The notes: a model not told the origin generated them from the letters alone. 64,000 nucleotides of DNA from Escherichia coli (GCF_050920415.1 NZ_CP169309.1); one strand, 5' to 3'. Shown: positions 10,993 to 16,950, counted from the stretch's first letter. Made by a program: numbers and translations.

Positions 10993-11006
10993 TTGATAAC
11001 GATCAA
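10993..11006. promoter_or_regulatory. FNR box TTGATaacgATCAA upstream of ydhY
   Basis: Perfect match to the FNR consensus TTGAT-N4-ATCAA; the ydhY operon is known to be FNR-activated. Confidence 0.6.
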
Positions 11007-11207
11007 TGTTAAGAGCTCAGAATAATCACATTATTTTTCCTCCTAACCATAAAGGATTAGTTTATCAGCGTTAAATCTTTTCTCATACACTATCGGGTTA
11101 GGGAAAATATCTGGTGTTGGGGACAGAGTCAGCAGCGTATTAGTTGAATGCTTAATATCAGGCTGCTGAATTGTCAGCACTGTGTTTGCGAAGAGGATGC
11201 GAAATAA

Positions 11208-11834
11208 ATGAACCCGGTTGATCGTCCACTATTAGATATTGGCTTAACGCGATTAGAATTCTTGCGTATATCAGGAAAAGGCCTTGCTGGTCTAACAATT
11301 GCCCCTGCGTTACTGTCACTTTTGGGTTGCAAACAGGAAGATATTGATAGCGGCACAGTAGGGTTGATAAATACACCCAAAGGGGTGCTGGTGACCCAAC
11401 GTGCGCGATGCACGGGTTGCCACCGCTGTGAAATCTCTTGTACCAACTTCAACGATGGCTCAGTAGGGACATTCTTCTCCCGTATCAAAATCCATCGCAA
11501 TTATTTCTTTGGCGATAACGGGGTTGGCTCTGGTGGCGGCCTGTATGGCGATCTCAACTATACCGCGGACACCTGCCGTCAATGCAAAGAACCGCAATGC
11601 ATGAATGTCTGCCCGATTGGTGCGATTACCTGGCAACAGGAAGAAGGCTGTATTACCGTCGATCATAAACGTTGTATTGGTTGTAGCGCCTGTACGACGG
11701 CATGCCCGTGGATGATGGCCACCGTAAATACCGAAAGTAAAAAATCCTCGAAATGTGTGTTATGCGGTGAATGCGCAAACGCCTGCCCAACAGGGGCGTT
11801 AAAAATTATCGAGTGGAAAGATATTACTGTGTGA
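11208..11834 (+). CDS. ydhY: 4Fe-4S ferredoxin-like protein YdhY
   Basis: 208 aa; multiple CxxCxxCxxxCP motifs. Confidence 0.9.
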   Translation: MNPVDRPLLDIGLTRLEFLRISGKGLAGLTIAPALLSLLGCKQEDIDSGTVGLINTPKGVLVTQRARCTGCHRCEISCTNFNDGSVGTFFSRIKIHRNYFFGDNGVGSGGGLYGDLNYTADTCRQCKEPQCMNVCPIGAITWQQEEGCITVDHKRCIGCSACTTACPWMMATVNTESKKSSKCVLCGECANACPTGALKIIEWKDITV

Positions 11835-11854
11835 ATCTTGCAAAGGAAAAAATC

Positions 11855-14683: not shown

Positions 14684-15352
14684 ATGTCCTTCACTCGACG
14701 CAAATTTGTTCTGGGGATGGGAACAGTAATCTTTTTTACTGGTTCAGCGTCTTCTCTGTTAGCGAACACGAGGCAAGAAAAGGAAGTTCGGTATGCCATG
14801 ATTCATGACGAGTCACGGTGCAATGGCTGTAATATTTGCGCCCGCGCATGCCGTAAAACCAATCATGTCCCCGCTCAGGGAAGCCGTTTATCGATAGCAC
14901 ACATACCGGTCACCGATAACGACAACGAAACGCAGTATCACTTTTTTCGCCAGTCATGCCAGCACTGTGAAGATGCTCCTTGCATCGACGTTTGCCCAAC
15001 AGGAGCGTCATGGCGTGATATGCAGGGGATCGTGCGGGTAGAAAAATCGCAGTGCATCGGCTGCAGTTATTGCATTGGCGCTTGCCCGTACCAGGTTCGC
15101 TACCTTAACCCTGTCACTAAAGTTGCAGATAAATGTGATTTCTGCGCTGAGTCCCGACTGGCAAAAGGCTTTCCGCCCATTTGCGTCAGCGCCTGTCCGG
15201 AACACGCATTGATCTTTGGTCGCGAAGATAGCCCAGAAATTCAGGCGTGGTTGCAGGAAAATAAATACTATCAATATCAGCTACCTGGTGCCGGGAAACC
15301 GCATCTGTATCGCCGATTCGGTCAACATTTGATTAAAAAGGAAAATGTATGA
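14684..15352 (+). CDS. ydhX: Tat-signal 4Fe-4S ferredoxin-type protein YdhX
   Basis: 222 aa from ATG at 14684; twin-arginine motif TRRKFVLG; Cys clusters. Confidence 0.88.
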   Translation: MSFTRRKFVLGMGTVIFFTGSASSLLANTRQEKEVRYAMIHDESRCNGCNICARACRKTNHVPAQGSRLSIAHIPVTDNDNETQYHFFRQSCQHCEDAPCIDVCPTGASWRDMQGIVRVEKSQCIGCSYCIGACPYQVRYLNPVTKVADKCDFCAESRLAKGFPPICVSACPEHALIFGREDSPEIQAWLQENKYYQYQLPGAGKPHLYRRFGQHLIKKENV

Positions 15353-16134
15353 ACCCGTCGCAACATGCTGAACAGTTTCAGAGCCAGTTGGCGAACTATG
15401 TGCCACAGTTCACTCCCCAATTTTGGCCGGTGTGGTTGATCATTGCTGGACTATTGCTGGTAGGGATGTGGTTTGTGCTGGGGCTGCATGCCTTGCTTCG
15501 TGCTCGTGGCGTGAAGAAATCAGCCACCGACCATGGTGAGAAGGTTTATCTTTACAGCAAAGCGGTCAGATTATGGCACTGGTCGAATGCGTTACTCTTT
15601 GTATTGTTGCTGGCAAGTGGGCTGATAAATCACTTTGCGCTGGTGGGCGCAACTGCGGTTAAAAGTCTGGTTGCGGTGCATGAAGTTTGCGGATTTTTGT
15701 TACTGGCATGCTGGCTCGGCTTTGTTCTGATCAATGCCGTTGGGGGTAATGGTCACCACTATCGCATTCGTCGTCAGGGGTGGCTGGAGCGAGCGGCAAA
15801 ACAAACGCGATTCTATTTGTTTGGCATTATGCAGGGGGAAGAACATCCTTTCCCGGCAACAACCCAGTCTAAATTTAATCCCTTACAGCAGGTTGCCTAT
15901 ATTGGTGTCATGTATGGATTGCTGCCGTTGTTACTATTGACGGGGCTGCTGTGTCTCTATCCGCAAGCCGTGGGAGATGTGTTTCCTGGCGTAAGATACT
16001 GGTTATTGCAGGCGCATTTTGCTCTGGCATTTATAAGCCTCTTTTTTATCTTCGGTCATCTTTATCTTTGCACCACGGGGCGTACGCCACACGAAACCTT
16101 TAAAAGCATGGTCGATGGCTATCACCGGCACTAA
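15349..16134 (+). CDS. ydhU: membrane b-type cytochrome-like protein YdhU (PhsC family)
   Basis: 261 aa; hydrophobic with multiple transmembrane segments; start overlaps the ydhX stop. Confidence 0.88.
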   Translation: MNPSQHAEQFQSQLANYVPQFTPQFWPVWLIIAGLLLVGMWFVLGLHALLRARGVKKSATDHGEKVYLYSKAVRLWHWSNALLFVLLLASGLINHFALVGATAVKSLVAVHEVCGFLLLACWLGFVLINAVGGNGHHYRIRRQGWLERAAKQTRFYLFGIMQGEEHPFPATTQSKFNPLQQVAYIGVMYGLLPLLLLTGLLCLYPQAVGDVFPGVRYWLLQAHFALAFISLFFIFGHLYLCTTGRTPHETFKSMVDGYHRH

Positions 16135-16137
16135 CGA

Positions 16138-16950
16138 ATGATCATTACACGAGCAGACCTGCGAGAATGGCGTATCGGAGCGGTGATGTATCGCTGGTTC
16201 CTGCGCCATTTCCCACGCGGCGGTAGTTATGCCGATATTCATCATGCACTTATTGAGGAAGGATATACGGACTGGGCGGAGAGTCTGGTTGAGTATGCGT
16301 GGAAAAAATGGCTGGCGGATGAAAACTTCGCGCATCAGGAAGTTTCTTCTATGCAAAAACTGGCCATAGATCCCGGAGATAGACCATTTTGCAGTCAGTT
16401 TGCCCGCAGCGACGATCATGCTCGCATCGGCTGTTGTGAGGATAATGCCAGAATCGCAACTGCTGGGTATGCCGCGCAAATTGCCAGTATGGGTTATAGC
16501 GTGCGGATTGGAAGTGTCGGCTTTAACAGTCACATTGGCAGCTCCGGTGAACGCGCACGGGTTGCTGTAACCGGTAATTCTTCGCGGATAAGCAGCGCTG
16601 GAGATAGTAGTCGGATTGCGAATACCGGAATGCGAGTACGCGTTTGCACATTGGGTGAACGGTGTCATGTCGCCAGTAATGGTGACCTGGTGCAAATCGC
16701 CAGCTTTGGCGCAAACGCCAGAATTGCCAACAGCGGCGACAATGTACACATCATTGCCAGCGGTGAAGATTCAACAATAGTGAGCACGGGCGTGGTCGAC
16801 TCAATTATTCTCGGGCCAGGGGGAAGCGCCGCACTGGCATATCATGACGGCGAAAGAGTTCGCTTCGCCGTCGCCATTGAAGGTGAAAACAATATTCGAG
16901 CCGGAGTCCGCTATCGCCTTAATGAACAGCATCAGTTTGTTGAGTGCTGA
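16138..16950 (+). CDS. ydhT: uncharacterised protein YdhT with nonapeptide repeats
   Basis: 270-aa ORF; last gene of the ydhY cluster. Confidence 0.88.
   Translation: MIITRADLREWRIGAVMYRWFLRHFPRGGSYADIHHALIEEGYTDWAESLVEYAWKKWLADENFAHQEVSSMQKLAIDPGDRPFCSQFARSDDHARIGCCEDNARIATAGYAAQIASMGYSVRIGSVGFNSHIGSSGERARVAVTGNSSRISSAGDSSRIANTGMRVRVCTLGERCHVASNGDLVQIASFGANARIANSGDNVHIIASGEDSTIVSTGVVDSIILGPGGSAALAYHDGERVRFAVAIEGENNIRAGVRYRLNEQHQFVEC

Follow-up and report, generated by a model that had tools for sequence, protein, structure and literature searches.

The ydhYVWXUT operon and its conservation

We analyzed a 64-kb stretch of Escherichia coli DNA, referred to in its entirety as the window, and focused on ydhYVWXUT, an already-known chromosomal operon rather than a new locus. 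Its six genes are tightly packed on the + strand (11208-16950), and all six open reading frames (ORFs) are intact. We propose that they encode a membrane-anchored, periplasm-facing and quinol-linked molybdenum (Mo) reductase, regulated as outlined below, a reading to which we give roughly even chances. The genes are the following:

11208-11834, + strand: ydhY, a WorS-type 4Fe-4S ferredoxin with Pfam and NCBIfam matches
11855-13957, + strand: ydhV, 700 residues, the AOR/WOR catalytic subunit, clade 41, Class V
13970-14620, + strand: ydhW, from the RefSeq start (the K-12-equivalent start is 13961)
14684-15352, + strand: ydhX, an NrfC/PhsB-like ferredoxin with a twin-arginine translocation (Tat) signal
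15349-16134, + strand: ydhU, an integral-membrane b-type cytochrome of the FdnI/HyaC/PhsC family
16138-16950, + strand: ydhT, modelled as a helical domain followed by a beta-solenoid

The gaps between consecutive genes, from Y-V to U-T, measure 20, 3-12, 63, -4 and 3 nt, and for ydhV a longer ORF from 11771 differs from the annotated start at 11855. Compared to the NCBIfam family models, six of six ORFs were full-length. The original prediction, made from the DNA alone, had described six closely spaced genes in the order Y, V, W, X, U, T, the domain types of their products, and a known locus lacking an established substrate. The gene order and spacing were borne out, Pfam and NCBIfam agreed with the domain types, and a literature search up to August 2026 found no substrate assigned to YdhV or the ydh system. 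Overall, the original interpretation is supported.

The operon was found in 5425 of 5426 complete E. coli genomes. Compared to ydhYVWXUT of E. coli K-12 (b1674-b1669, 'EcYdh'), the window has the same locus, gene order and flanks (fumD and ydhS) and carries allelic differences only: the MG1655 proteins are between 94.4% (YdhW) and 99.6% identical to those of the window, and the intergenic/promoter region agrees at 442 of 455 positions, with the FNR box, -10 hexamer and operator unchanged. When measured against E. whittamii, dN/dS was 0.025 for ydhY, 0.013 for ydhV, 0.036 for ydhX, 0.065 for ydhU and 0.048 for ydhT, and reached its highest value in the operon, 0.116, for ydhW. As judged from these ratios, purifying selection acts on all six genes. 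The YdhV family, suggested to be rare in enterobacteria, is not especially so in Enterobacterales: a genome scan also located members in Citrobacter, Proteus, Serratia, Brenneria, Budvicia, Leminorella and Limnobaculum.

Promoter and regulation

The control region of ydhY contains four elements, listed here from the distal to the proximal end:

10940-10958, + strand: Fur-box-like 19-mer TTAAATGATAATAAATATC, agreeing with the consensus at 14 of 19 positions, upstream of the FNR box
10993-11006, + strand: FNR site TTGATAACGATCAA, a class II activator site, the box being identical in K-12
11029-11034, + strand: candidate -10 hexamer CATTAT, 23 nt downstream of the box, assigned from the published -42.5 spacing
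11044-11059, + strand: inverted repeat TAACCAT-aa-AGGATTA, a putative NarL/NarP 7-2-7-like operator just downstream of the presumed start

The perfect FNR box that had been noticed upstream of the six genes is the only perfect TTGAT-N4-ATCAA within the window, for which the chance expectation is 0.10 per window, with at least one occurrence in 10 of 100 shuffled sequences. In K-12, ydhYVWXUT is a category-1 FNR operon with a chromatin immunoprecipitation (ChIP) peak, FNR-dependent expression and a site at -42.5 (Myers 2013; PMC3688515), and the coordinate of that peak matches the box at 10993-11006. The predicted FNR control thus agrees with published K-12 ChIP and expression data for the same promoter box, and the analyses of fnr-dependent expression and of YdhV metal and pterin content that had been suggested as checks are already in the literature.

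Both FNR half-sites are perfect in loci of 24 Escherichia and Citrobacter species. Given that the half-sites are invariant while the 4-nt spacer varies, we read the site as a phylogenetic footprint. The distance from the box to the ATG ranges from 209 to 241 nt across the two genera. In an alignment of 12 species, three conserved blocks stand out amid a diverging region, namely the FNR half-sites, the -10 block, in which A-TTAT is invariant or nearly so, and the inverted repeat at 11044-11059. The published -42.5 position would place the ydhY transcription start at ~11042, giving a leader of ~166 nt. A small hairpin (11164-11179) lies in this leader directly 5' of the ydhY ribosome-binding site, and an Rfam search of 10200-17200, leader included, returned no structured RNA at E-values as high as 1.

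In the inverted repeat, each heptamer agrees with TACYYMT at 6 of 7 positions; the ydhY promoter contains no perfect NarL heptamer (TACYYMT), only this 6/7 + 6/7 inverted pair. The counterparts in Leminorella and Limnobaculum read TACCTCT-tt-GTTGGTA and TACCCAC-tt-AGAGGTA, respectively, and come nearer to the NarL/NarP 7-2-7 consensus. NarL and NarP reportedly repress the ydh operon (Partridge 2008, as cited in later papers). Judging from the repeat itself, nitrate/nitrite repression via NarL/NarP probably acts at 11044-11059.

The Fur-box-like 19-mer is situated within a tract of 77% A+T, and just 7 positions across the window reach a Fur-box score of at least 14. Fur is reported to regulate ydhYVWXUT and to give a ChIP peak at its promoter (PMC7157518), and this peak may correspond to the 19-mer. 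It has also been published that the sigma-S holoenzyme preferentially transcribes the ydh promoter in vitro. According to the scheme that we propose, the operon would be switched on in the absence of oxygen via FNR, switched off by nitrate/nitrite via NarL/NarP, and modulated by Fur and sigma-S.

YdhV is probably not a typical aldehyde oxidoreductase

YdhV matched the Pfam models AFOR_N (PF02730, 1.3e-67, residues 7-205) and AFOR_C (PF01314, 6.2e-48, residues 270-685) and scored 1372 bits against NCBIfam PRK09849, for which the cut-off is 868. Its CxxCxxxC motif (C307/C310/C314) aligned to C288/C291/C295 of PfAOR and was, like C336, invariant in a four-sequence clade alignment. A HMMER alignment of low confidence paired Gly332 with Glu313 of PfAOR and the invariant Cys336 with Ala317. 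When YdhV was aligned by HMMER to the BamB and AOR structures, the match was confined to the N-terminal domain and some short stretches of the C-terminal part. Because the catalytic core aligns poorly by this method, what we say about the Cys336 ligand and the second shell draws mainly on a 2025 review, which describes the YdhV clade as having Cys336 as a metal ligand, as lacking the second-shell residues of aldehyde-oxidising AORs, and as sister to the benzoyl-CoA reductase BamB.

Compared to BamB (PDB 4Z3W) and the Pyrococcus AOR and FOR (1AOR, 1B25), YdhV belongs to the same fold family, with E-values of 1e-44 to 1e-62 for the N-terminal domain, and has the [4Fe-4S] Cys motif in common with all of them. 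Like BamB, it is described in the review as having a Cys metal ligand and missing the AOR second-shell residues. In contrast to BamB, AOR and FOR, it is ~50-95 residues longer, prefers Mo and is membrane- and Tat-associated. The YdhV cofactor is a bis-Mo-molybdopterin (bis-Mo-MPT), with Mo preferred over tungsten (W) (Reschke 2019, summarised in PMC9103625 and PMC13328260), and a description from 2019 names YdhV as the first enzyme shown to bind such a cofactor.

A paper of June 2026 assigns the system to Class V WOR, clade 41, with the E. coli operon as a named member (PMC13328260). The window displays the traits of this class, that is, YdhV together with a signal-bearing YdhY, accompanied by YdhX (Tat) and YdhU (five transmembrane segments). 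According to the same paper, Class V WOR is without any assigned activity or role, and none of 46 aldehydes gave activity with the clade-41 enzyme of Cetobacterium. Given the Cys ligand, the missing AOR second-shell residues, the sister relationship to BamB and the inactivity of the homologue on 46 aldehydes, YdhV is probably not a typical aldehyde oxidoreductase. The original prediction was thus right about the aldehyde:ferredoxin-oxidoreductase family of YdhV, whereas the aldehyde substrate screen that it suggested is probably misdirected.

Two ferredoxins and a membrane cytochrome

YdhX carries four [4Fe-4S] Cys motifs and opens with the signal MSFTRRKFVLG (TRRKFVLG ... SLLA), which combines an S/T-R-R-x-F-L-K motif, a hydrophobic core and an AxA-type cleavage site (MSFTRRKFVLGMGTVIFFTGSASSLLA). 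RR[KQ]F[VLI] was present in 43 of 43 YdhX homologues. The Tat signal that had been recognised in TRRKFVLG is therefore canonical, and YdhX appears on the published list of E. coli Tat substrates. In NCBIfam comparisons, YdhX resembled NrfC, PhsB, TtrB, HybA and DsrO (3.6e-40), and remained below the NrfC equivalog cut-off (248 vs 377.6 bits).

YdhU matched PF01292 (Ni_hydr_CYTB; prokaryotic cytochrome b561 family) at 8.9e-31 and scored 457 bits against the NCBIfam PhsC model PRK15006, with a cut-off of 204. It contains five hydrophobic segments and eight His residues that are invariant in 43 sequences, and presumably holds a quinol/quinone site. RefSeq labels ydhU as phsC, 'thiosulfate reductase cytochrome B subunit'. 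No DMSO-reductase-family gene (phsA) or phsB was found in or adjoining the operon, which places the system outside PhsABC, and the name phsC is a family-level transfer that does not denote function. Compared to PhsABC/PsrABC and NrfCD, the ydh system would likewise place a Tat-exported four-cluster ferredoxin (YdhX) on a membrane subunit that oxidises quinol, and share with them the logic of a periplasm-facing, quinol-linked reductase. Unlike in PhsABC/PsrABC, the catalytic subunit is an AOR/WOR enzyme with bis-MPT, not a member of the DMSO-reductase family with bis-MGD (MGD, molybdopterin guanine dinucleotide), and there is a second ferredoxin, YdhY.

YdhY likewise contains four [4Fe-4S] Cys motifs, at residues 68, 123, 156 and 183. 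Its residues 1-41 (11208-11330) resemble a Tat-lipoprotein signal with a single Arg, TRLEFLR ... LLSLLGC: the T/S, the first R, F-L, the basic residue, the hydrophobic core and the lipobox LLGC are all present, and the twin arginine is not. SignalP-6 nevertheless scores YdhY as TATLIPO at >99% (PMC13245402). YdhY had been called ferredoxin-like, which its Fe-S motifs support; it is not a plain ferredoxin, as it carries a Tat-like signal with a lipobox.

The accessory proteins YdhW and YdhT

Neither YdhW nor YdhT had a local Pfam match, and each hit only its own NCBIfam equivalog; newer Pfam entries, YdhW_C and YdhT_N, are recorded in the protein database. A PDB sequence search returned no relative of either protein. 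The YdhW family has 519 representatives at 50% clustering. The structural model of YdhW (predicted local distance difference test, pLDDT, 91.7) begins with ~40 disordered, acidic residues and continues into two winged-helix-like domains. DNA binding is unlikely because of the pI of 4.3. The N-terminus (13961-14100) is variable within E. coli: relative to K-12, an indel of 4 residues (SEDI) falls here, as do most of the 12 differences.

YdhW lacks a signal peptide and always adjoins the WorS-WorL pair, often followed by fdhD and tatA/tatC. This fixed position after the catalytic pair, often with fdhD and tat genes next in line, suggests a maturation/escort protein or a third subunit, and most likely YdhW would be a cytoplasmic maturation or export escort. 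As a candidate chaperone of the TorD/DmsD/NarJ (PF02613) or NapD type it was rejected, given the missing Pfam and PDB matches and the tandem winged-helix fold. YdhT was modelled as an N-terminal five-helix domain plus a beta-solenoid of 9-residue repeats, and would be an Enterobacterales-specific cytoplasmic accessory protein.

YdhY signals differ between systems with and without YdhX/YdhU

To place the operon among its relatives, we surveyed 80 loci (one genome per species, from a YdhV alignment scan), together with the contexts of distant YdhW homologues and the window itself; the 80 loci did not include Shewanella, Sutterella, Coriobacteriia or Desulfovibrio. YdhY, YdhV and YdhW formed a conserved core in every surveyed system. 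Among the surveyed loci, YdhX and YdhU were confined to Enterobacterales, one Telmatospirillum metagenome-assembled genome (MAG) and one further metagenomic contig, and YdhT to Enterobacterales-type systems.

YdhY signals could be compared over 85 systems, 43 with and 42 without YdhX/YdhU. In nearly all of them the N-terminus had the Tat-lipoprotein layout. In the presence of YdhX/YdhU, the second Arg of YdhY was replaced in 43 of 43 systems (R-L in 41, the window included, R-Q in 1 and R-K in 1), whereas it was kept as a twin arginine (RR; R-R-x-F-L-K) in 42 of 42 systems lacking YdhX/YdhU. The 43 former systems all retain the first Arg, F-L, the hydrophobic core and the lipobox Cys in YdhY, and their YdhX always carries RR. 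The tat genes follow the same division: tatA/tatC adjoin the operon in 33 of 41 surveyed loci without YdhX/YdhU, and no adjacent tat genes were seen in the systems with them.

This split is confounded by phylogeny, as the systems with YdhX/YdhU appear proteobacterial and most RR systems belong to Firmicutes with their own Tat genes, and the correlation may reflect few evolutionary events. Diderm lineages with RR and without YdhX/YdhU are represented by Cetobacterium and a Spirochaetia MAG. The split agrees with the published TATLIPO call, with the detection of an unprocessed YdhY N-terminus and with the absence of YdhY from the Tat list.

The three-gene type of Class V WOR (WorS-WorL-YdhW with fdhD, tatA and tatC), exemplified by CsWOR41 of Cetobacterium somerae, whose L-S-W operon has tatAE, tatC and fdhD nearby (June 2026 paper), has a homologous catalytic pair and YdhW in common with the E. 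coli type. YdhV is 53-60% identical to its counterparts there, and the three-gene WorS has the same signal layout as YdhY (Tat motif, hydrophobic core and usually a lipobox). The three-gene systems have the canonical RR and their own tat and fdhD genes, and are without YdhX, YdhU and YdhT, whereas the E. coli type has the R-L motif, the housekeeping Tat system and an unlinked fdhD. Furthermore, the Cetobacterium enzyme prefers W and E. coli YdhV prefers Mo. Some distant ydh-type systems were embedded among Mo-cofactor genes (L090 1092-10623; L091 3845-5092), with mobB, moaA and fdhD upstream and moeA downstream; this context hints at a dedicated cofactor supply, possibly including cofactor sulfuration.

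We hold it possible, with doubts prevailing, that the six-gene enzyme uses an export and anchoring logic unlike that of its three-gene ancestors, either with YdhX providing the ride or with the YdhY signal as a NarG-like remnant, and with YdhW as escort either way. In the hitchhiker version, YdhY and YdhV would cross the membrane only as passengers of the RR-bearing YdhX, which would constitute an assembly checkpoint, and E. coli would in that case have in YdhY its first native Tat-dependent lipoprotein. In the remnant version, the YdhY signal would keep the active site in the cytoplasm.

A proposed quinol-linked reductase and its rivals

According to the mechanism that we propose, YdhU would be an inner-membrane five-helix b-type cytochrome exchanging electrons with the menaquinone pool, and YdhX would be exported by Tat and dock on YdhU. 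An electron wire would then lead from YdhU (haems b) via YdhX (four clusters) and YdhY (four clusters) to YdhV, where it would end in one [4Fe-4S] cluster and a Cys-ligated bis-Mo-MPT centre. Electrons would flow from menaquinol to the substrate, and in the absence of nitrate the complex would act as a terminal or detoxifying reductase on a periplasmic compound other than an aldehyde. On the comparative evidence, YdhX and YdhU, and probably YdhW, would be required for a holo-complex.

The identity of the locus, its domains, motifs and promoter elements are established, as are, from the literature, the FNR dependence and the Mo-MPT cofactor. We infer the order of the wire, the periplasmic location of YdhY and YdhV, the direction of electron flow and what YdhW and YdhT do. 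The reductase direction is favoured because FNR activates and nitrate represses the operon, as with dms, frd and ynf, because the sister clade BamB is a low-potential reductase that has the Cys ligand in common with YdhV, and because no aldehyde oxidation was seen in a homologue. Ravcheev & Thiele likewise class the ydh system as a predicted reductase. The periplasmic orientation is suggested by the RR of YdhX, by the Tat-lipoprotein-type signal of YdhY, and by the three-gene homologues with their RR and own tatA/tatC.

Several points weigh against this mechanism. No substrate, activity or phenotype ties the complex to a reaction, its direction is argued from regulation and analogy only, and the joining of six products in one complex is a proposal. 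Hydrogenase-2 is a donor enzyme under similar regulation, and the FdnI/HyaC family of YdhU also serves donor-side redox loops. The fold of YdhW, as modelled, is unlike that of any known redox-enzyme chaperone. Regarding topology, YdhY is without the second Tat Arg, leaving the export of YdhY/YdhV unproven. Moreover, the residue following the YdhY lipobox Cys41 is Lys42 (11326-11333), with Thr, Ser or Arg in other genera and Asp only in Brenneria salicis. According to the Lol +2 rule, a residue other than Asp after the lipobox Cys sends a lipoprotein to the outer membrane, with no inner-membrane retention, making the Lys odd for a partner of the inner-membrane YdhX/YdhU. Finally, an unprocessed YdhY N-terminus has been seen by N-terminomics, and YdhY is missing from the classical E. 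coli Tat substrate list.

A serious rival, in our judgement improbable though well above negligible, reverses the wire: YdhV would oxidise a low-potential periplasmic donor, aldehyde-like or otherwise, and pass electrons via YdhY and YdhX to the two haems of YdhU and on to menaquinone at the cytoplasmic side, yielding a proton-motive redox loop like that of formate dehydrogenase-N. YdhU fits such a loop as a member of the FdnI/HyaC cytochrome b family with five hydrophobic segments, and the spacing of its conserved His pair H223/H237 matches that in FdnI. All characterised AOR/WOR enzymes except BamB oxidise low-potential substrates, and the donor enzyme Hydrogenase-2 uses the Tat ferredoxin HybA, which YdhX resembles. 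However, the clade of YdhV has the Cys ligand and is without the second-shell residues of aldehyde oxidisers, no activity was seen with the Cetobacterium homologue on 46 aldehydes, and nitrate/nitrite repression would be unusual for a donor enzyme able to feed nitrate respiration.

Compared to the periplasmic reductase that we favour, a second rival retains the export of YdhX and changes the side of the membrane on which the chemistry occurs. Here, YdhY and YdhV of the six-gene systems would stay in the cytoplasm, the single-Arg N-terminus being a NarG-like remnant signal that serves as a membrane anchor or a dock for YdhW, while periplasmic YdhX and di-haem YdhU would move electrons to or from the cytoplasmic active site, as in DsrMKJOP-type conduits. 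The remnant Tat signal on NarG provides a precedent. Pointing the same way are the loss of the second Arg in 43/43 systems with YdhX/YdhU against RR in 42/42 others, the missing tat genes next to the former, the resemblance of YdhX to DsrO, and the two observations on the YdhY N-terminus and the Tat list given above. Yet YdhY strictly keeps its hydrophobic core and lipobox Cys in all 43 systems, which argues for a signal that is still functional. Its charge distribution favours, from sequence, an N-in/C-out orientation, and SignalP-6 returns TATLIPO with the near-certainty cited above. RK and similar single-Arg motifs can be transported by Tat, and the RR/non-RR division is confounded with phylogeny. 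We consider this arrangement unlikely.

That E. coli carries the operon as a cryptic or decaying relic without present function, as might be suspected from the lack of a substrate or clear phenotype after nearly two decades, from MG1655 expression below detection under some conditions (PMC7157518) and from the published ydhX mutant without a fitness defect in a mouse infection model, is highly improbable and was rejected on the grounds of dN/dS (0.013-0.116 for every gene) and pan-genome conservation, the six full-length ORFs, the FNR, -10 and operator blocks conserved across genera and the published regulated expression also standing against it.

E. coli has no AOR/WOR-family enzyme other than YdhV, whose class accounts for >10% of the WOR family, occurs commonly in gut bacteria and is without a known reaction. 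Beyond what was already established for the locus, the present analysis contributes the correction regarding aldehydes, a domain-level picture of YdhW and YdhT, and the dichotomy between RR and R-x, which makes the topology testable.

Flanking genes and strain background

Upstream of the operon lies fumD (ydhZ), at 10543-10752, and downstream the convergent gene ydhS begins 5 nt beyond the end of ydhT. One further feature delimits the ydhY control region on its upstream side:

10757-10785, + strand: fumD intrinsic terminator, a 12-bp stem leading into a T-rich tail

E. coli strain MFDS1022581 matches the stretch at 100% identity. Over 10700-17000, an identity of at least 99% was found in just 4 of 5426 E. 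coli genomes, with the rest at 95-99%; because so few genomes reach this level, the window appears to stem from a comparatively uncommon E. coli lineage. Outside the operon, between pykF and fumD, RefSeq annotates the small ORF YnhH on the - strand (9994-10188).

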